Virus record (IMG/VR): IMGVR_UViG_3300048861_000043
Coordinates: 3,178 to 67,177 of that record
Length of the DNA stretch: 64,000 bases
Direction: 5' to 3' (one strand)
DNA from: a virus
Lineage: Duplodnaviria; Caudoviricetes
How positions within the stretch are numbered: position 1 is the first letter of the stretch; each line of letters starts with the position of its first letter. The notes beneath the pieces are model-generated. The model made no database searches, was not told the origin of the DNA, and saw only the letters and a list, made by a program, of their open reading frames with translations. A program made the position numbers and the translations under genes. Positions 2,455 through 49,898 of this stretch are shown here, in pieces.

Positions 2455-3309
2455 TCAAGCTATTGATACGACGCCGGAGTTATTCCAAAGCTGTCCGTTA
2501 CTAATTCCAGAAAGGCTTAGAGGGAGATTTGCGCCGCCCAGCGCGAGGAGTTGCGAGGCGCTTGTGGTGGCCAGAAATACGGGCGGCGCAGCCGGATTGG
2601 GCGTGGTCGTTCCGGCTACGCACACGACACCACCATTGCTATAGAGCGCCCCAGCCGAGAGACCGGATGGCGATGTGGGCCAGCCAAAGATTCCCTGTCC
2701 CAACGTGACTACGCCGCCATCGTTCACCAGACCAATCTGGATGATGGTGACCTGAACGCCAGCGGGGCGCGGCAGCACTCCGGATTGAGCGACGATGGCG
2801 AACTGGACCGGGCTCAGTTGGAATTCGAACGTGTACGTCATGGTCATGTCCTGACCATCGGTACACCAGCAATCCCCGGATGACCCGAACAGGGCCATCA
2901 GAATCTGATTGATCGACGGGATAGAGCCGTTCGTAATGTTGGCTGCTGCTTTGGCGAGGATCAGCGTTCGGAATGCGTCATCAGTTAAGGCAAAATTTGA
3001 TGTGGTCGCCCCGCCAGAAAAGAAAGGAGCTTGACCGAATGGCGTTTCAACAGTCGGGTCGCCCGCCTCTTCAAAGCCGAGAAATTGACCGCTTGAGACT
3101 TGGAGGACGCGATTCACGCCCACGATGCGGCCCCACACGTCGAGCCCATAACCAACGGCAGTACTGATATCCCAAACATTGTTTATGAAGGCCTCAATGT
3201 TCGCGCTCGGATTGACCGCATCATTGAAGCTTTCGACCAGGCTAAGGATTACGGGTGAATTAGCGAACTGGCTTAATATGGTGTCCCGGAAATCGAAGGT
3301 ATCAGCCAT
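2455..3309 (-). CDS. DUF2612-like baseplate wedge protein with C-terminal extension
   Basis: TILSQFANSP...WDISTA.GYGLD.WGRIVG...L.D..FR.LI.AKA..NI signature; follows baseplate J. Confidence 0.85.
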   Translation of the reverse strand: MADTFDFRDTILSQFANSPVILSLVESFNDAVNPSANIEAFINNVWDISTAVGYGLDVWGRIVGVNRVLQVSSGQFLGFEEAGDPTVETPFGQAPFFSGGATTSNFALTDDAFRTLILAKAAANITNGSIPSINQILMALFGSSGDCWCTDGQDMTMTYTFEFQLSPVQFAIVAQSGVLPRPAGVQVTIIQIGLVNDGGVVTLGQGIFGWPTSPSGLSAGALYSNGGVVCVAGTTTPNPAAPPVFLATTSASQLLALGGANLPLSLSGISNGQLWNNSGVVSIA

Positions 3310-7068: not shown

Positions 7069-7108
7069 TTCTTAACGGTCCAATCGGGCCACAAACATAG
7101 AGGTAACA

Positions 7109-8042: not shown

Positions 8043-9923
8043 TTAACTCAACCCTGTGTTTGCCTGTGGCACCGTGAAGCTGTATTTCGCCATTTCCTTG
8101 CCGAAGTCTCGAGCGAGGGACTGTGCATCGGTCGCCTGTGTCTGGATGGTAATCGGGCCGTTGATGTTCGTCTCGGCAGTCGAGGTCATCTGGGACATAC
8201 GGGATGCGTATGAGCCGGAACTGCGAGCGCCAGCGGACTGCGCCGCTATTGCAGCCGCGTTGGTCGATCCACCGCCCGAGCCGCGCATAAACGACTTAAG
8301 CTTAGATCCATAAAGCGGATCGGTCGCATAGTGGCCGGTAAGCGCATCAGCGTAGGCCATCGGGTCGTTGAGATGCTTGCGCGCTTCCGCATAAGCCGAG
8401 CCGGTCGCCAAAAGCTTGCCATGCGCCTCAAACGCATCGTCCAAGGATGCGTATTTTGCGAATTTTGTGGGAACGCGTTTGCCACTTGCATCCCAATCCA
8501 TGCCCATAACGAAGTCCTGACCGGCGCGTGCATGAATCCCAAATGGATTGTTGCTTCCCTTCGGCATCTGCCTTCCGAACCCACTTTCAAGGCCAAACTG
8601 AGCAAGCGTGACGTCGATCGGAACACCATATTTCGCCTGTGTTCTGATTGCCGCTTGCACTGCCTCCGGACCCGCTTTCTGTCGAAGATCATTTGAGGTG
8701 CCCAGCGCGCCGGCTAGCGCATCGGCAGAATGGGACGCGACCGCCTTAACGAAGTCCATCGCCGGCATGTGAGCCGATGCTGCCAACCAGTCGCCATTCG
8801 CGATGTCCTTCTCGCCCTGGGTCTTATCCGTGTCTGGCAGACCCATTGCCTTCGCAATGCCGAGACCTGCGAGCGCCGCAATCGCGGCCGGCCCCAACGT
8901 ACCGATGATGCCCAATGAGGATCCGAGTCCACCAAGCGCGGCGGCAAGCGAGAGGATTGGACTCACCATCGACAGAATCTTGATTCCGGCAAGCGCGATG
9001 AGTACGTTCTTCCAGCCGCCAACCGAATCAGCAGCCTTATCCGCCCATTGAACAAATTGCTGGATGGATTGAACGGCATCGTCGACCCACTTGGCTATGT
9101 CGGCTTTGTGGTCAGCAACCCAATCGGCCATCTGCTGCAACTTCTTGAGCCACAACTCAAAAGTCGGCATCAACTCCAGAAGGATCGTCATTCCGACGTA
9201 CTGGAGGCGGTCCCTGAAGTCTAGCCATGCGTTCTGAAGTTTGAGAGCTTGCGCGGCCTGTTGTTCGGTGATGGCCGAGTTCTTCTTCTGCGCATCGACG
9301 AGCGCGAGGATGGCTTGCGGGCCTTGCTTGATGAAGTTGAACTCTTCACCGCTGACGCCCATCATCTGGGAGACGAGTTGCGCGCGAGCCGGATCGACCT
9401 TGTACAGGTCCTGGATGATCTTCGCGCGAGCCAGCAGGAAGCTATTGCCGTCCTGCAGGTCGCTAGTCTTTCCGCCGAAACGAAGGAAAGCCTGTATCTG
9501 GTCGCTGACCTTGCCGATCTTGAACCCGGCGATCTGCTGCTGAGAGTCCTGGAGTGCTTGCGTGATTCCTTCGGCGCTACCGCCTGCACGTTCGGCCGCC
9601 CGCTGCCACGCAGAAAGCTCCTGCGTGCTCATCTGCAGATTCTTGGCCATATAGCCAAGATTCACCGCCGAGCCGATCGTGTGCTCGGTGAAGTCCTTCA
9701 AACCCATTCCGGCAGTGAAGATCGCCAGGAGAGCCAGCACCTCATTGCGGACCTTCTTGAACGACTCGGCAGCCCGCTTGTTGGACGCCTCGATTTCCTT
9801 TGCGGCCTTGGCTTCTTCTGCCGTCAGTTTCTTCGTGGCGTCGGATGCCTTGTTCTTGCCGGTGATGAAGCCGGCAACGTCCATGCCGAGTGTCACGACC
9901 AGAGCGTCGACAATATTCGCCAT
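8043..9923 (-). CDS. Tape measure protein with C-terminal GH73 (FlgJ/glucosaminidase-like) domain
   Basis: Helical Ala-rich N-terminus; AQFGLESGFG...NNPFGI...FAKYASL...YATDP.Y catalytic-domain motifs. Confidence 0.9.
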   Translation of the reverse strand: MANIVDALVVTLGMDVAGFITGKNKASDATKKLTAEEAKAAKEIEASNKRAAESFKKVRNEVLALLAIFTAGMGLKDFTEHTIGSAVNLGYMAKNLQMSTQELSAWQRAAERAGGSAEGITQALQDSQQQIAGFKIGKVSDQIQAFLRFGGKTSDLQDGNSFLLARAKIIQDLYKVDPARAQLVSQMMGVSGEEFNFIKQGPQAILALVDAQKKNSAITEQQAAQALKLQNAWLDFRDRLQYVGMTILLELMPTFELWLKKLQQMADWVADHKADIAKWVDDAVQSIQQFVQWADKAADSVGGWKNVLIALAGIKILSMVSPILSLAAALGGLGSSLGIIGTLGPAAIAALAGLGIAKAMGLPDTDKTQGEKDIANGDWLAASAHMPAMDFVKAVASHSADALAGALGTSNDLRQKAGPEAVQAAIRTQAKYGVPIDVTLAQFGLESGFGRQMPKGSNNPFGIHARAGQDFVMGMDWDASGKRVPTKFAKYASLDDAFEAHGKLLATGSAYAEARKHLNDPMAYADALTGHYATDPLYGSKLKSFMRGSGGGSTNAAAIAAQSAGARSSGSYASRMSQMTSTAETNINGPITIQTQATDAQSLARDFGKEMAKYSFTVPQANTGLS

Positions 9924-25168: not shown

Positions 25169-25831
25169 TCAGGCGGCTTTCAATAAGCAAGTCCCGCACA
25201 TGCGGGCGATGTCAATATTGGCGATCTCGGGCGCCTGATTCGCGGCCCTCACAAGCTTCGCTGTGTTGCTGTCTGGAGAGCCCATGCCGTAGCGTCGAAC
25301 CACCCCAATAAATTCTTCGACGTCGTGCGATTGGATCCCGATCTTCGGCTGGCCGTCCTTCGTAAATGCCGGTGCGCCGAATTCATCCAGCCTGTGCGCG
25401 AGGTGATATAGCTCATGCTCGACCAACGCACAGAACTCAGCGTCTGAGCATTCCCGGCAGTAGTTGGCGTCCAGTGTGATGAGGTATCCCGGCACGCGGC
25501 CGAACCATTCCTCCATCTGCTGTTCCTGCCGACCCTTCTGCCACGCTCCACAGCGGAATGTCACTTCCTCGCACTGGCCGATTACCCGGCGCATCTGGCG
25601 TTTGTTCTCGGGTATGGCCCAGAGGAAAGCCAGGTCCGCGAAGCGCAGATGCTCGTGGTCTTCGTTGTGGAGCGGCGAATCGAGCCGCAGGAAAGTGTCA
25701 GCCACCCAGTCATGCAAGCCATCAGCGGGGACGAAGCGCTTTACCCAATTGCCGTCGTCAAATAGCAAATCTGGAGGCGCAGGCCTGAGCTGCGCAATGT
25801 TTCCGATGTTTTCTTGCTTCTTGCGAGGCAT
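25169..25831 (-). CDS. Phage putative metallopeptidase
   Basis: ALVEHELYH (HExxH) and HDVEEF.GVV.RYG. Confidence 0.85.
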   Translation of the reverse strand: MPRKKQENIGNIAQLRPAPPDLLFDDGNWVKRFVPADGLHDWVADTFLRLDSPLHNEDHEHLRFADLAFLWAIPENKRQMRRVIGQCEEVTFRCGAWQKGRQEQQMEEWFGRVPGYLITLDANYCRECSDAEFCALVEHELYHLAHRLDEFGAPAFTKDGQPKIGIQSHDVEEFIGVVRRYGMGSPDSNTAKLVRAANQAPEIANIDIARMCGTCLLKAA

Positions 25832-30654: not shown

Positions 30655-31304
30655 GCGGCCTCCGTTTGAATATTTTGTATTGCCGGCCTTTCGACTTCAA
30701 TAAGTTTTCCGGCTTTCAACCATTCACTAATTCGTTGCCTGCGCACTCCGAGAACACATGCGGCATCGGCGAGACACATCACTTGGTCGCCTATTCTGAC
30801 GAAACGATTTGTTCTCCGGTTCCTGGCTTGTTCGTGGCTTGTAGCCCAACGGCAGTTACCAGGTCCATAACCTTTTTCGTTGTCTATGCGGTCCACGGTG
30901 TGTTTTTCGCTAGGTGCCTCTCCCATATCACGATAAAAGACATCGAAATTAAGCCAGTCAGGATGGATAGTGATTCCTCTTCCTCCGTACCGGGGATAAG
31001 ACCTTGATCCCGTATCTGTTACCCTCGATACCATAGCCGTCCACGTGGTATACATCTTTGTTCCGGTCATGCCATGGGTAGTGGCGCGCCTCCCAACTTC
31101 TGACGCAGACTCTCTTTGTAGGCAGCCGCATGATCTGGTTGTCCCTCTCCTGAGGTGGTTGCTTTGGATGACCTTCACCTTTCCACAGTCACAGATGCAT
31201 TCCCAATAAGAGGCCCTTGCCTTTCCCTCGATAGATGTGGGTTTGATTACAGATAATCGCCCAAACCTCATGCCCGTCAAATTGAATTTCAGTTTCCCAG
31301 CCAT
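30651..31304 (-). CDS. HNH-type homing endonuclease-like protein
   Basis: LTG.RFGRL.V...W.C.CDCG...SCGC...YGGRGI...F..DMG...DRIDN.KGY.PGNCRWAT..EQ.RN. Confidence 0.85.
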   Translation of the reverse strand: MAGKLKFNLTGMRFGRLSVIKPTSIEGKARASYWECICDCGKVKVIQSNHLRRGTTRSCGCLQRESASEVGRRATTHGMTGTKMYTTWTAMVSRVTDTGSRSYPRYGGRGITIHPDWLNFDVFYRDMGEAPSEKHTVDRIDNEKGYGPGNCRWATSHEQARNRRTNRFVRIGDQVMCLADAACVLGVRRQRISEWLKAGKLIEVERPAIQNIQTEAA

Positions 31305-31426
31305 GCCGACTCCGATAATTCGATGTGCATTGAGAACCCTTCAGACAGGTACAGAGCCGCCAGGATCAGGATGGAGAAGATGCCGAGGAGGTAGCCGATT
31401 AGGAGGCCGGGTAGGAAGGCGGTCAT
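31289..31426 (-). CDS. Small membrane peptide
   Basis: MTAFLPGLLIGYLLGIFSILILAALYL...; ATGA coupling. Confidence 0.55.
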   Translation of the reverse strand: MTAFLPGLLIGYLLGIFSILILAALYLSEGFSMHIELSESAWLGN

Positions 31427-33288: not shown

Positions 33289-33509
33289 ACCGTCGCCCCC
33301 ATTTCTCTCGCAAACCGAGTTACCCGCCATGCAAACTCTTTAGCGGCTTCTTCACGTCCAATCCGTCGAGCCTCATTCAGCAATTGAGCCACGGCGTGGT
33401 AATCGGAAAATTCGTTGAAATGCACCGCGCGCTCAACATCTCCCACTTTGAATAGGGCGTCGCCGCTGCTGTCGGTTTCGTTACCGAACCATTCAGATTG
33501 GAAGGTCAT
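33285..33509 (-). CDS. Hypothetical protein
   Basis: 74 aa; coupled on both sides. Confidence 0.65.
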   Translation of the reverse strand: MTFQSEWFGNETDSSGDALFKVGDVERAVHFNEFSDYHAVAQLLNEARRIGREEAAKEFAWRVTRFAREMGATV

Positions 33510-34144
33510 TGAGCCTCCGCGTCTGAGCGCATCATCGTTCGGAATGATTCCCTCTCTTTAGAGACCTGAGCATCGGCATCTTTGAATGCTTGATACTCGG
33601 CGAACTTGATCGATTGGTCTGCCGCCCGATTCGACGTCTCAATCCGTCTCGCGTCTTCCTCGCGGGCGACGTGTTCTGTCATCGCCTGGCTGTCTGCGAT
33701 CGTGTAATGCCGCGGACTCTTGTCGGCGTACATCGCCTTGAGGCGTCCGACATGAGGCGTCAGAACGTCCAGCATTTCAAGATAGCCACCGGCCACCATG
33801 CGATCGTCGTTCAGCTTACCGGCGGCCTGAGCGTCGACCAGAATGGCAAGGCAGGCGAGCGCATGGGCGAAATGGGGCAGCCCGCTATCCGCATCGTTGT
33901 CCTGGCCTTCGAACCATTTTGCGAGGTGCCGTTGCGCCGCATCAACATAGATCGATGCGCGCACACCAGCCACTCGCCAATTTGAGCGGCCATATTTGAG
34001 CATGCCGTCTAGTAAGCCAAGCGAGCCAAGTGCCGAGGCAGTGGCTGGCCAGAGGTGGAGCGGCAGCTTGCCTGAGCCGATCGCATCTTTGGGATTCGTA
34101 TCTTTGAGTTGAATCTCGTCGGCCTTTTGCCAATGCTCGCTCAT
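33506..34144 (-). CDS. dATP/dGTP diphosphohydrolase domain protein (DUF5664-like)
   Basis: NPKD..G..K.PLHL.P...G..KYG..NWR...Y..A..RHL..W..G.D.D..SGLPH.AHA.ACL.IL. Confidence 0.85.
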   Translation of the reverse strand: MSEHWQKADEIQLKDTNPKDAIGSGKLPLHLWPATASALGSLGLLDGMLKYGRSNWRVAGVRASIYVDAAQRHLAKWFEGQDNDADSGLPHFAHALACLAILVDAQAAGKLNDDRMVAGGYLEMLDVLTPHVGRLKAMYADKSPRHYTIADSQAMTEHVAREEDARRIETSNRAADQSIKFAEYQAFKDADAQVSKERESFRTMMRSDAEAQ

Positions 34145-40753: not shown

Positions 40754-40851
40754 TAACGATAGCATTTGCTCTCGCATAGCGCAAGCACTTGCTCGCAAAA
40801 CAATAACTTTTGCGATCACAGCAAATGCTAGTTTTCAGTTTTAATACCGTT
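40754..40851. promoter_or_regulatory. oR region: three AGCA-NN-TGCT operators, pR and pRM
   Basis: Operators at 40761, 40784, 40820; TCGCAAAA-N7-TTTTGCGA palindrome 40793-40815; pR TTGCGC-17-TATCGT on minus strand. Confidence 0.75.
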
Positions 40852-42166: not shown

Positions 42167-42259
42167 ACGGCGGAAGCCGTCTTGAGTCTGTCGCACTTCG
42201 GTGCGACAGCGGCCCCAGCCGGGGCGTCGAACTGAGCCCAGCCCCGCGCTGGGCTTTTT
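42167..42259 (+). terminator. Three stable hairpins plus intrinsic terminator ending cI operon
   Basis: ACGGC-GGAA-GCCGT; CTGTCGCAC-TTCG-GTGCGACAG; GCCCC-AGCC-GGGGC; AGCCCAGC/GCTGGGCT plus TTTT. Confidence 0.75.
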
Positions 42260-42335
42260 CATATCCCCCCCCTGCTGCTCGCGCGGCATCCTCCCTCACC
42301 GAAAGCAACGATAAAAAAATTTATCGATAAACGAT

Positions 42336-42373
42336 AGCTTTTGCTTGCGTTGCGCGAAAGCGTTTGCTATTGT
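42336..42373 (+). promoter_or_regulatory. oL/pL: two operators and early promoter
   Basis: AGCTTTTGCT 42336 and AGCGTTTGCT 42359 (23-bp spacing as at oR); TTGCGT-17-TATTGT with extended -10 TG. Confidence 0.7.
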
Positions 42374-42431
42374 TCTTCTCAGACGCAGCACAACACCACA
42401 CGCAGCACCAAACGCTAAACCGGAGAGAGTG

Positions 42432-42653
42432 ATGAGCAAGATCAAGGGCTACACGGACAAAGAGATCACAGACCGCGTTCAGGTGATGGATTTCCTTGAA
42501 GCCAATCAAGACGAACTGCAATCGCTCATGAAGCTCAGGGGTATGACTGAGGAACAGCCCGGTTACACGGCTTTCGTAATGAACTTCGTGCGCAACAAAC
42601 TGCGCGACGAGGATCTCCGAAACGAATTCGTGACTCAGCATTGCTTGGCATAA
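42432..42653 (+). CDS. First early-left gene, hypothetical
   Basis: GGAG RBS; MSKIKGYTDKEITDRV... Confidence 0.7.
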   Translation: MSKIKGYTDKEITDRVQVMDFLEANQDELQSLMKLRGMTEEQPGYTAFVMNFVRNKLRDEDLRNEFVTQHCLA

Positions 42654-42699
42654 CAGGTCGAAACCGCCGCAGATCACCGCGGCAACAAGGGGAAGGGAA

Positions 42700-42876
42700 A
42701 TGCGCGAATGGCTTGTGATGATTTACGCGGGTGAATATCACACGAACCCAACGTGGGTGCTTTCGGTAAGCGCTGATAGCAAGGCGATGGCGATATCGAC
42801 GGCAATGTGGCTTTTCAAGGGTTCAGCAGAGTACACGGATTCGATCAATCGGATCGAGGCTGAGGAAGCTATTTAA
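42700..42876 (+). CDS. Small hypothetical protein (58 aa)
   Basis: Own translation MREWLVMIYAGEYH...; AAGGGG RBS. Confidence 0.6.
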   Translation: MREWLVMIYAGEYHTNPTWVLSVSADSKAMAISTAMWLFKGSAEYTDSINRIEAEEAI

Positions 42877-43610
42877 CTGTTCCCACCGCTAAGCCTACGG
42901 GCTTACCAGTGCGAATAGCACCGCAGTAGAAGCAAAACGCGCAATGGCGCACCGATCCGGTGACAGCGGAACGAGTTCTTTAAGATGACCGGAAGGGATA
43001 CCCGTAAGGGAGCGCCCAACGTCCTACCGCTGAAAAGATCGGGACCTATCAAACCGTGGTGGTTCGGCTAGTGATCCACGGTGTGATTGAGCAGTACCCG
43101 CCAGACCGGCCAATAGATGCACGGTCGGTCTGGATGCAGGTTTTCGTGAATGGCGTTGTGCGGCGCGGAGAATCGTAGACGCGCAGGGACATCCTAACCG
43201 ACATTGCGAGCGGAGTAGCCGGAGTTACACGACCGGCCATAGCGCCATTCACGAAGCACTGCAGTTTTGATGGAATCGGAATGCGCAGGCTGATGCGCAG
43301 TTATTCGGGTAACGAACGGGCGATTCAATGCGGCTGGCTGTAAGACAAGGCTCGTAAATAGAAGGTAAGCCAGCATCGCCCGATAAATTCGGTGGACATC
43401 CATATTCCCTCGCATGAGGTGGAGCCTATACCGAACATAGTTCAAGTCGGAGATCAGCACCGGCCCGATTCCCTGAAAGCTGCAACACCAAGCACGCTGA
43501 ATTGTGCCGGTTGGGCCTCCGCACAGAGGTCCCTTACTTATGTGCATGGGATAGACCAACACAGCCGGTACTTCTGAGCGGGGCTTATACGAGTGAATTG
43601 TCAAGTTAGT
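42877..43610 (+). ncRNA. ~730-nt structured non-coding RNA cluster including C4/CI-like antisense RNA units
   Basis: No credible plus-strand ORF; long stems 43143-60/43238-55, 43272-79/43465-72, 43317-24/43375-82; UACG/GUAA/UUCG loops; loop-loop complementarities. Confidence 0.65.
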
Positions 43611-43630
43611 AGTGCTTATCGGAGAAGACT

Positions 43631-43801
43631 ATGGGTGATATGGGTGATTCAGAACCGACCTATGCCGACTACACGGCAAGCGAGATCCGAGAATTTCTGG
43701 ATGCGTGCGACGACATGGGCGAGGGGCTAGATAGTCTGCTGGGAGACGGCGAAATAGCCGTCAACATCATCCGCGATCTTTTGGCCGCGCTGGCCGGCTA
43801 A
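43631..43801 (+). CDS. Small acidic protein (56 aa)
   Basis: GGAG RBS; MGDMGDSEPTYADY... Confidence 0.55.
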   Translation: MGDMGDSEPTYADYTASEIREFLDACDDMGEGLDSLLGDGEIAVNIIRDLLAALAG

Positions 43802-43825
43802 TCTCGCCCCCCCCTAGGAGCCCAC

Positions 43826-43978
43826 CATGCCCGCCCAACGCGCAGTGCACAGAATCATGCAAATAGCAGTAGAGAGATTGCAGCACCTCGGTCTCGTGTA
43901 CAGAGTCGATCGCGTGACGCGCACGGGCAGGGTGCTGGATTCGGAGTTCGTTCTTTTGGACCAAATCACTTGGTGCTG
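43826..43978 (+). CDS. Small hypothetical protein (50 aa)
   Basis: AGGAG RBS; MPAQRAVHRIMQ... Confidence 0.5.
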
Positions 43979-44661: not shown

Positions 44662-44987
44662 TTACTAAGCGACGGCCGCTCTTAGATTCTATAAGCCGCA
44701 GCGGTGAGATGCCGCAACGAACTCAACGCGACACCTGCCGGGCCTGTAGTGGGCGCAAGGAGTGGTGCGACAGCCGGAGAGACGGCTATTAAGTGGACAG
44801 CGCGGATCCCTGAAAGCGCCTTTCCGGGTGGGATGCCCGGAGCCCTGAGTGGTGACGACTTAGCGCCGATTACGCAAGCCGATGCTTCTGCGACACGCGG
44901 GGGCGAACCTGGCCGGGATCGGGACTGCGCGGGGGAGTCGTCACCACTGAGGGCAATCAACCTTCAACCGAATTCAGGAGTCCTACC
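44662..44987 (+). ncRNA. Second structured non-coding region
   Basis: 18/19-bp stem 44842-60/44936-54 enclosing GCA-AGCCGA-TGC hairpin and ATCGG; additional hairpins upstream. Confidence 0.55.
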
Positions 44988-45200
44988 GTGGGCACACATT
45001 TCAACGCCGAGGTCTATCGGCAGATTGCGCCGCAAGATCAAGAAGACGACGAACCCGAATACTCCCCCGAAGAAGATTGGGAAATGGGCTTCAGCGACTG
45101 GAAGCACAACAAGGATGACGATCTGGCGACGGTGGTTAGGCGGTACGCGCGACCGGTCGGTCATGTCGATCTGTGGGACGAACCGAGGAGGGCGGCATGA
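44988..45200 (+). CDS. Acidic hypothetical protein
   Basis: GTG start with AGGAG RBS. Confidence 0.6.
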   Translation: MGTHFNAEVYRQIAPQDQEDDEPEYSPEEDWEMGFSDWKHNKDDDLATVVRRYARPVGHVDLWDEPRRAA

Positions 45201-45442
45201 ACGGATTGCCGAAAGGGCCATGGTCGTCAAGTCTGGATGGACACGGCGCATTTAGTATCGAATCAGCGACTGGCAACCAGATCTGCTTTGTACGCAATGC
45301 CGAGGCTGCCTGCTTGATCGCTGCCGCGCCGGAATTGCTCGCTGCATTGAAAACGGCTGTGGAGGTCATTGGCCATCCCGACGACAGTTTCAGCGTGTAC
45401 ATCGCTAAGTTGATCGCCAAAGCCACCGGGAGCCAATCATGA
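45197..45442 (+). CDS. Hypothetical protein
   Basis: GPW...A.LIAAAPELL.AL...IAKA.G module; ATGA coupling. Confidence 0.75.
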   Translation: MNGLPKGPWSSSLDGHGAFSIESATGNQICFVRNAEAACLIAAAPELLAALKTAVEVIGHPDDSFSVYIAKLIAKATGSQS

Positions 45443-49146: not shown

Positions 49147-49164
49147 CCCTCACACGCCCACCCA

Positions 49165-49242
49165 GCATCAGATGAAGCCGAAAGGCGCTGATCTCCGAGT
49201 AAGTCTGGTTGGACGTGCCCCAGCATCAATCGCTGGCGCATC
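49165..49242 (+). promoter_or_regulatory. Candidate antisense-RNA target sites (a/b-type)
   Basis: GCTGATCTCCGA 49187-98 is the reverse complement of 43447-58; GCATCAG 49165-71 and GCGCATC 49236-42 are complementary to 43290-98. Confidence 0.65.
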
Positions 49243-49275
49243 CATCCAAGATGCCCGCGAAGGTTGCGTGTGCTT

Positions 49276-49299
49276 CCCCGGCTTCGGCCGGGGCTTTTT
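49276..49299 (+). terminator. Intrinsic terminator/attenuator before RNA ligase
   Basis: CCCCGGC-TTCG-GCCGGGG-CTTTTT, 14 nt before ATG 49314. Confidence 0.8.
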
Positions 49300-49313
49300 C
49301 CGAGAGAACAAAT

Positions 49314-49898
49314 ATGGATTTCGTTGAATTTCCGAAGATGGCTCGTCTGTCCCGCGAAGTTATCGTGACAGAAAAAATCGATGGCACTAATGCTGCGATC
49401 GTTATCGAGGCTGCAACACCCGGTTCAAAAGCCATCGCGACAGTCGGCGGTTTCGATCTTTTTGCCCAGTCGCGCACGCGCTTTATCACGCAAGAAGCCG
49501 ACAACTTCGGTTTTGCGCTATGGGCAGGCAATAACGCCGAAGAACTGCTGAAGCTCGGCGTTGGCCGTCATTTCGGCGAGTGGTTCGGTTCGGGCATTCA
49601 ACGCACCTACGAGCTGAAGGAAAAGCGCTTCGCGCTATTCAACGTTTCGCGCTGGGATGATCCGGCAGCGCGTCCCGCCTGCTGTCATGTCGTGCCGACG
49701 CTCTGGCGCGGGAATTTCTCGGACCTGAATGCGGATCTGGTGCTGGGCGAGCTTGCATTGTTTGGCAGCCAAGCGGTCCCCAACTTCATGAAGCCCGAAG
49801 GAATCATCGTCTATCACGTCGCTGCCGGGATCGGCTTCAAAAAGACCATCGAAAAAGACGAAATTCCGAAGTCGGTAGCTGAACGTCAGGCCGCCTAA
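49314..49898 (+). CDS. ATP-dependent RNA ligase family (Rnl2-like nucleotidyltransferase)
   Basis: TEKIDGTNA (KxDG), SR.R, GEWFG, FALFN, PEGI..Y, FKK. Confidence 0.85.
   Translation: MDFVEFPKMARLSREVIVTEKIDGTNAAIVIEAATPGSKAIATVGGFDLFAQSRTRFITQEADNFGFALWAGNNAEELLKLGVGRHFGEWFGSGIQRTYELKEKRFALFNVSRWDDPAARPACCHVVPTLWRGNFSDLNADLVLGELALFGSQAVPNFMKPEGIIVYHVAAGIGFKKTIEKDEIPKSVAERQAA

Follow-up and report, generated by a model that had tools for sequence, protein, structure and literature searches.

What occupies the gene-free array of about 750 bases (positions 42877–43630) within an early operon of the soil phage recorded in IMG/VR as IMGVR_UViG_3300048861_000043? The record is a complete virus of 67,177 base pairs (bp) with direct terminal repeats, and the stretch analysed here (hereafter the window; 64,000 nucleotides (nt), positions 3,178 to 67,177 of the record) is most of it. 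The initial annotation, made from the letters alone, had described this part of the window as a tandem array of structured RNA domains in an early-left leader, and had read it as a precursor of several small RNAs (sRNAs) with different loop specificities, on the precedent of the P1 C4 and P4 CI RNAs. We find that the array is a chain of separately folding RNA modules, neither a gene nor a single giant RNA. One of its modules (unit B; Table 1) belongs to a family of phage RNAs that includes an RNA already detected in pathogenic Escherichia coli.

The array as a chain of RNA modules

The region appears to be non-coding. Comparison with relatives found no conserved open reading frame (ORF) within 42877–43630, and the longest frames there (136 and 67 amino acids (aa) on the − strand, 61 aa on the + strand) resemble relatives over just 13–20 residues, where they overlie conserved RNA cores. 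The 58-, 56- and 50-aa genes on either side are conserved at the protein level. As a whole, the region folds at −284.9 kcal/mol on the + strand (z −4.83, versus z −2.26 on the − strand), and the + strand also has the better z score in each module. Together with covariation in unit B (see below), this bears out a tandem array of structured RNA domains on the + strand, and the hairpins and long-stem units exist where the initial annotation had placed them. Rfam at gathering score gives no match in the whole window; at E ≤ 10 on 42500–43900 its only matches are to an rpsB sRNA (E 0.9) and to a CRISPR repeat (E 8.5), which lie on the − strand and do not rise above chance; and blastn of 42600–43900 against 50,697 GenBank phage records gives no match.

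It is extremely improbable that the array is not an RNA feature at all, i.e. that it is a decayed or unrecognized protein gene, or a DNA element such as a miniature inverted-repeat transposable element (MITE), an origin or a set of single-strand initiation hairpins. The 136-aa ORF is open on the − strand and inverted repeats fold as DNA too. However, the ORFs are neither conserved nor matched to any family, helix changes are wobble or compensatory and strand-specific, all copies share both operon and orientation, and a homologue is a detected RNA (PMC7719688).

The array comprises at least six modules, which related Burkholderia-type phages combine and order differently. Module sharing with the relatives (G001–G005, L014, L015, L022, L056 and L059) is piecemeal and in varied order; for example, M1, M3 and M4 are found again in G001, G002, G005, L015 and L056, with compensatory changes and with a different placement relative to unit B. 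Many soil-metagenome contigs pile up on the ends of unit B, join across its insert (43298→43448) or end at module borders. The shuffled modules and the contig breaks therefore indicate that the region is a mosaic of interchangeable modules rather than one large RNA. A single ornate RNA of about 750 nt, similar to GOLLD or ROOL and with all domains acting together, would suit the size, the phage context and the many GNRA or kissing elements, but we consider it very improbable because the modules separate in relatives, in other orders, numbers and combinations, the contigs break at the borders and no Rfam large-RNA family matches.

The 5′ modules and the last one can be described individually. 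M1 folds with z −2.8 on the + strand and −1.4 on the − strand (42877–42975); its hairpin at 42890–42907 keeps its pairing with wholly different sequences in G005 and L015, and the module is placed after unit B, not before it, in L022, G003, G004 and L014. M3 is 97% identical in G002 and 92% in G005, where changes include a loop substitution (GUAA to GCAA) and a compensatory stem change (GUCC/GGAC to GCCC/GGGC); its energy gives no thermodynamic signal (z +0.2). M4 (z −3.9 on +, −1.3 on −) is 91–93% identical in G001 and G005, immediately 5′ of their unit B. Unit C, which had been described as a kissing-loop junction at 43506–43569, has z −2.8 on the + strand and −1.4 on the − strand (43500–43575); energy is the sole check on it, and no homologue was found among the relatives compared.

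Unit B, its family and sRNA-17

Unit B has the full core layout at 43261–43483, namely P1, (G)AAU, P2 (GCGCA-loop-UGCGC), an insert, CAA and P3 (GYCGG-loop-CCGGC), with one U–G pair in P3. A covariance model (hereafter R1) was built from eight relatives with the window left out, and consists of P1 (about 18 bp), P2 and a P3 that abuts P1. It scores unit B of the window at 64.2 bits (E ∼1e-12) and matches second copies in several genomes. Its forward matches reach 100–140 bits versus about 30 bits on the reverse strand, a gap of about 80–110 bits in the strongest members. Covariation among homologues, which the initial annotation had proposed as a check, is present: across 25 family members 95% of cells are paired, and 19 of the 32 pairs have changed on both sides, in P1, P2, P3 and the contact between the P2 and P3 loops alike. 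None of 500 shuffles was as good, and slid controls reached at most 9 pairs and 14 cells (19 and 78 observed).

The P2–P3 contact is a kissing helix of 5 bp that exists in three compensating versions (GCUGA/UCAGC, GGUGA/UCACC and ACCGA/UCGGU), the first of which is found in the window; three of its five pairs covary across the family. Loops of their own type pair over 5 bp (4 plus a G–U pair in L049a), whereas cross-type combinations reach 2–4. The alternative loop specificities proposed earlier thus correspond to mutually compensating P2/P3 loop versions. The family is assigned to the + strand because U–G pairs are fixed there, which would be C–A mismatches on the opposite strand. The sequence of P1 is free (e.g. 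GGAAUCGG, GGGAUGGG, GGAACGGG and GAGAGUG), (G)AAU, CAA and both stems are nearly fixed, and the insert between P2 and P3 ranges from 37 to 147 nt. In unit 1 of G001 (25240–25421) and G005 (8526–8721), two consecutive CAAG-hairpin elements replace the single P3; the first loop (GCCAC) can pair with the P2 loop (GUGGU) with one wobble, and for the second loop (AUCAGAUGAAAACCG) the unit offers no partner.

Unit A resembles unit B in architecture. The R1 model scores it weakly (15.8 bits, E 0.009), in agreement with the earlier suggestion that the two units are paralogues. Both have the G(C/U)CGG...CCGGC hairpin abutting the closing stem, for which covariation is available in unit B. Both also have the loop–loop complementarity that had been pointed out, but only part of that claim stands: it is backed by covariation in unit B, whereas the unit A version (UCGU/ACGA) is not kept across its family. 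That family has 12 members from a second pattern scan, with interiors of 115–239 nt, and is characterized by a helix motif (UUUUUCGUGAAUGGCG.../...CGYCAUUCACGAAG), a 5′ hairpin GCGYG..CRCGC and a 3′ hairpin adjoining the closing helix, all of which the window has. The closing helix is nearly invariant among the 12 members, with only G–C/G–U and U–A/U–G changes and with + strand U–G pairs that are fixed; P2 has one covarying pair, and the unit folds with z −4.0 on + and −1.9 on −. A base motif, GCAG|UUUU ... AAAGCUGC (pattern (G/A)AAG NNN UGC), is common to the helices of units A and B, which are joined head to tail via a UGCAG|UUUU junction in the window and in L080.

The relatives were assembled stepwise. 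Two viral contigs (L014 and L015) were found through the 56-aa protein encoded next to the array, and their DNA similarity to the window consists of short islands; module shuffling prevented a full-length alignment of the gaps in the window, L014 and L015 with MAFFT alone. A pattern derived from the most conserved island led to seven more viral contigs, including four complete genomes of 57–70 kb and one 69-kb provirus, and also matched two Paraburkholderia genomes and several soil contigs amid many chance matches. The conserved islands are the two ends of one unit with a variable interior. In DNA pattern scans of genome and metagenome collections, the full unit was present in 2 of 12 and 6 of 19 matches, and the rest were mostly chance; among the six are the L015 contig and the G004 unit, the latter twice. 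Among searches with flanking proteins, a 102-aa frame gave one weak locus, a 116-aa protein gave 11 loci of which none is DNA-similar to the array, and the 58-aa protein gave none; alignment of the 56-aa protein added none in genome contigs and none new in viral contigs.

The copies are co-oriented with an S24 CI-type repressor gene and always lie 0.5–2 kb downstream of it. In a sample of 150 species genomes from the host family, 8 carry an R1 match. The unit B family is spread through temperate phages of Beta- and Gammaproteobacteria, and is widespread yet uncatalogued (it is not in Rfam 15). T-arm hairpins (GGUUCGAxUCC) adjoin unit B copies in L037 (G003), L082, L092, L093, L091 and L079, where no full transfer RNA (tRNA) can be called; L091 and L092 have true tRNA genes (Gly and Met) 650–800 nt downstream, on the strand of the unit, and an odd tRNA-like call lies directly against unit A of L079. 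Some of these hairpins may be tRNA fragments from att sites. In the window itself, ARAGORN finds neither a tRNA nor a transfer-messenger RNA (tmRNA), and the P3 loops are not T-loops.

The link to a detected RNA comes from E. coli K1 strain RS218, in which sRNA-17, a 193-nt RNA of an mEp460-like prophage, was characterized by Northern blot and rapid amplification of cDNA ends (RACE); no Rfam homologue was reported for it (Front Microbiol 2020, PMC7719688). We made the comparison through coliphage mEp460 and the oligonucleotides in the supplement of that paper. R1 matches mEp460 at 30976–31114 (44.7 bits, E 4e-10 in 3.5 kb), in early-left orientation and in the gap downstream of cI, as in the window. 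Neither the P2 hairpin nor the CAAGCCGGAGAUCAGCACCGG hairpin differs between the two phages and P3 abuts P1 in both, and the full-length, RACE and Northern oligonucleotides contain the P2/P3 sequences in the same sense. From the R1 match and the oligonucleotide identity, sRNA-17 is therefore a unit of the B type with a terminator after it. Unit B is thus homologous to sRNA-17, and at least this type of unit accumulates as a discrete RNA, as was shown for the E. coli member; release as discrete sRNAs, a part of the initial proposal, has in sRNA-17 a precedent within the family (PMC7719688). The two differ in that mEp460 has another P1 (GUUGUGGUGA/UCACCACAAC) without the GCAG/UUUU base, a single unit followed by an intrinsic terminator instead of a tandem array, and an insert of 79 nt instead of 147 nt. 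The published account treats sRNA-17 as an ArcA-controlled trans-acting sRNA of E. coli and gives no family or fold (PMC7719688). On the + strand of mEp460 (L086), gp36 and gp37 (30855–31408) are annotated in the non-coding early-left gap, gp36 overlapping the sRNA-17 unit on the opposite strand; both look like spurious gene calls.

Proposed release and action of the units

From the folds, their strand and modularity, the family membership and the homology to a detected RNA, we infer how the units may be released and act. The array would be part of the early-left (PL-type) transcript of the phage. Two of its modules are multi-helix junctions that a long helix closes off. The core of unit B (a P1 of free sequence, (G)AAU, a 5-bp P2, the insert, CAA and a 5-bp P3 stacked directly on P1) would be pulled by the P2–P3 kiss into a compact, tRNA-like shape. 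Cleavage at the base of the closing helices, which are about 20 bp long, would free the units from the polycistronic early RNA; the shared base motif that links the units suggests RNase III and/or RNase E. The products would be stable RNAs of about 120–230 nt with the kissing-loop head as their working part. At an early stage of infection or induction they would influence, in trans or in cis, the expression of phage or host genes. With moderate confidence, we favour this composite of release at the closing helices and action through the kissing-loop head.

Several observations weigh against it: (i) the only match from an RNA library is one 399-nt soil metatranscriptome contig over 43264–43402, which is possibly DNA carry-over, is not a processed species and is silent on ends, strand and level; (ii) the GCAG/UUUU helix base is limited to Burkholderia-type phages, and mEp460 and the members in bacterial genomes are without it; (iii) support for M3 and unit C is thin; (iv) an intrinsic terminator stands behind the mEp460 unit, so that the RNA there may be a terminated leader, not a cut-out; and (v) the strongest effect of deleting sRNA-17 is derepression of yfdP and yfdR (PMC7719688), which by our reading of the annotation are the genes just downstream of the mEp460 unit. 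This effect may fit a cis role or terminator removal as well as a trans role, and may reflect loss of the terminator before the early-left genes.

The last point is also compatible with cis-acting punctuation, in which RNase III/RNase E processing and stability helices, together with folding that excludes Rho, would set the levels of the early cistrons, and any excised pieces would be by-products. The early RNase III sites of T7 are the model for such punctuation. The intercistronic place within the operon, closing helices of about 20–23 bp (nearly invariant in unit A) and the conserved base motif that connects the units agree with it. We nevertheless regard it as unlikely, because a simple processing hairpin would require no conserved three-way core and no covarying kiss, and because distant phages share the core even though P1, where cleavage is supposed to occur, is free to vary. 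In addition, sRNA-17 reaches levels detectable on Northern blots (PMC7719688).

Kinship with P1 C4 and P4 CI, the precedents named in the initial annotation, finds no support. An Infernal search with Rfam RF01695 (C4; gathering score 45 bits, clan CL00128) is silent at E ≤ 10 in the region and in the whole phage, though the positive controls P4 CI and mEp460 C4 score 74.9 and 83.6 bits, and c4-a1b1 is absent from 42500–43900 at the same threshold. Conversely, R1 gives only noise in P4 (CI RNA) and in the HK022 immunity/put region, and therefore detects no relation to CI or put RNA. In mEp460, C4 lies beside the antirepressor-like gp41, far from the sRNA-17 unit; the two loci therefore hold distinct things. 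At 33444–33645 of mEp460, in or beside gp41, Rfam finds isrK, c4-a1b1 and C4 consecutively.

C4/CI-type function would mean antisense immunity RNAs processed by RNase P, with loops that pair with phage transcripts and block translation or force termination. In the window, the P3 loop of unit B would pair at a complementary site (Table 1) before a terminator that gates the RNA ligase-to-integrase genes. The site lies in the exonuclease–ligase gap, about 80 nt upstream of the strong terminator at 49276–49293; the chance of a 14/15 match on the target strand is about 0.02 (a rough estimate), the P2 loop of unit B has the GCUGAU of the site, as with a1/b1 in P1, and L014 has an 8-nt complement in a similar place before a terminator. 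Other features are also suggestive: co-resident units differ in loop type, ACCA follows the upper P1 in about half of 16 aligned Burkholderia-type units (CUGA in the window), and four genome-borne members combine a 7-bp P1 and a 5-bp P3 into a 12-bp tRNA-like stack. However, apart from the silence of the C4 model here and of R1 on P4 CI, no comparable site (at least 13/15 and above the − strand control) was found in G001–G005, L014, L015, L022, L049 or L073, and a 200-nt unit should by chance have about 0.7 complementary 12-mers on each strand; such 12-mers are equally present on the control strand. Phages of E. coli and of Burkholderia have the commonest loop pair in identical form, which would be odd for immunity specificity, and no icd or ant-like gene was recognized downstream of the array, where the small ORFs lack a Pfam or PHROG family. 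We therefore hold C4-type action, including its version at this site, to be improbable, and treat the site as an uncertain lead, read from sequence complementarity, that would be specific to the window and not a family feature.

The same gap (49147–49314) also holds a hairpin in which AUCAG...CUGAU self-pairs to enclose a GAAA loop, and AUCAGAUGAA at 49168–49177 recurs in the P3b loop of unit 1 of G001 and G005. The RNA ligase gene there probably starts at ATG 49314, not at TTG 49209. In L056, positions 7092–7104 are a 13-nt exact complement of its own unit B P3, about 600 nt downstream, in a coding region at or near the junction of two ORFs.

The loops may also be read in a more speculative manner. 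In the GGUGA/UCACC type, the P3 hairpin is G-GAUCACCUCC-GG, i.e. GGAUCACCUCC (L082 11168–11387 (−), L049 2898–3038 (+)) or UCACCUCC (G004, L015 and L059), which we take to read as the 3′ end of 16S ribosomal RNA (the anti-Shine–Dalgarno), a post hoc match that could be chance; the P2 loop of this type, GGUGAU, is Shine–Dalgarno-like. The kissing-loop pair might then be a programmable address, one version of which copies the recognition pair of the ribosome, and the units might be ribosome decoys, or masked mimics of the 16S tail by which strong ribosome-binding sites are captured; unit B of the window has the GCUGA/UCAGC address instead. This is a long shot; if true, address arrays would let phages reprogramme translation or RNA decay early in infection.

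Operon setting and comparison with known systems

The structural genes of the phage occupy the − strand up to about 40.7 kb. The + strand carries, starting at 40,810, an S24 CI-type repressor gene, two small ORFs, a terminator, an operator-like 16-mer, small genes and the RNA array; more small genes, RecT, a YqaJ exonuclease, a terminator and an RNA ligase follow 3′ of the array, with an integrase far downstream. This is a lambda-PL-like early-left operon. The 16-mer AACGATAGCNTTTGCT occurs at only two places, 40755–40770 and 42330–42345, on either side of the cI operon (0.07 expected by chance); written with its variable base it is AACGATAGC(A/T)TTTGCT, and on this sequence evidence the two copies are probably OR- and OL-type operators. 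A 31-nt stretch over the cI terminator (42235–42265) is 100% identical in L015.

The array lies about 500 nt past the predicted PL-like promoter and behind two small genes. The term early-left leader therefore does not apply, and the array is intercistronic. The 73-aa and 58-aa products of these genes have no Pfam or PHROG match, and the 58-aa product is 59% identical to an ORF of G002. The first gene probably starts at ATG 42432, as its ribosome-binding site (GGAGAG) suggests; the listed TTG start at 42345 falls within the operator/promoter region. On the 3′ side, homologues of the 56-aa gene in L014 and L015 are preceded by their own ORF-poor structured stretch of 640–815 nt. No RNA ligase homologue was found in G001–G005; the ligase is therefore not a constant partner of the array.

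Table 1. Coordinates of the RNA modules and neighbouring features in the window.
Feature	Position	Strand	Details
Intrinsic terminator closing the cI operon	42234–42256	+	9-bp stem and T run
PL-like promoter/operator region (predicted)	42330–42375	+	Inferred; sequence read directly, hexamers putative
Two small early genes 5′ of the array	42432–42876	+	73 aa, 42432–42653; 58 aa, 42700–42876
Module M1	42877–42985	+	Irregular hairpin or multibranch, then conserved run CGCAGUAGAAGCA...UUCUUUAAGA; higher-order closure ambiguous
Module M3	42988–43056	+	GNRA hairpin and second hairpin
Module M4	43101–43133	+	11-bp hairpin
Unit A	43139–43262	+	∼23-bp closing helix, 5′ hairpin GCGCG..CGCGC, 3′ hairpin GCCGG-AGUUACACGA-CCGGC
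Unit B (sRNA-17 family member)	43260–43486	+	P1, J1/2, P2, 147-nt variable stretch, CAA, P3
Unit B P1	43261–43279 with 43465–43483	+	Closing helix
Unit B J1/2	43280–43282	+	AAU
Unit B P2	43283–43298	+	Loop GGCUGA
Unit B P3	43446–43464	+	Loop AGAUCAGCA; abuts P1 3′ strand; preceded by conserved CAA
Unit C	43504–43571	+	Closing stem, two hairpins with complementary loops GCACA/UGUGC
56-aa gene immediately 3′ of the array	43631–43801	+	85–89% identical proteins in L014 and L015
Site complementary to unit B P3 hairpin (possible trans target, uncertain)	49184–49199	+	12-nt exact (at 49187), 14/15 complementary

A second ORF-poor structured stretch of about 325 nt (44662–44987) lies in the same operon. 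Within it, approximately 44843–44861 and 44935–44953 form an 18–19-bp closing helix around hairpins with CCGAU/AUCGG loop complementarity, and 44667–44771 are 92% identical in provirus G004 (L024); the R1 model scores 44840–44958 at 5.8 bits, below significance. The listed 183-aa ORF at 44704–45255 is probably spurious, and the true gene probably begins at GTG 44988.

In brief, 0.7–1.3 kb of the early-left operon of temperate phages, from those of E. coli to those of Paraburkholderia, is structured RNA absent from databases, and gene callers put spurious ORFs over such regions. One module now has a defined fold with strong covariation, including a tertiary kiss in several compensating versions, and is tied to an RNA that was detected in pathogenic E. 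coli and was there read as a host sRNA without a phage family. Should the units turn out to be regulators or decoys that are excised and whose loop addresses can be exchanged, they would represent a new layer of phage early regulation.

Among known systems, DicF of the Qin prophage is an sRNA from the early operon of a lambdoid immunity region, freed from a polycistronic transcript by RNase III and RNase E. It is a short, Hfq-dependent, linear antisense RNA without a closed junction or kissing loops, and Rfam found no sequence relation between it and the array. GOLLD and ROOL resemble the array as ornate RNAs of several hundred nt in phage genomes, sometimes beside tRNAs, but have no Rfam match here, and the modules of the array are independent and shuffled between relatives.

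C4 and CI are small structured phage RNAs made from the transcript of their own operon, with a closing stem and two hairpins, the 3′ one stacked, and with loops that carry specificity. This plan recalls unit B, yet no homology is detectable either way (RF01695 and R1). The two loops of unit B pair with each other, whereas both loops of C4/CI pair with external targets, and unit B, unlike C4/CI, has a variable insert between its hairpins and no icd/ant cassette. In the three-way junction of the purine-riboswitch type, P1 closes two hairpins of equal stem length whose kissing loops give a compact side-by-side fold. Unit B is like this junction in architecture only: the junction sequences are unrelated, the unit B junction carries its 37–147-nt insert, and there is neither an expression platform nor an Rfam hit. 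Moreover, purine-riboswitch loops are fixed, whereas those of unit B vary in concert.

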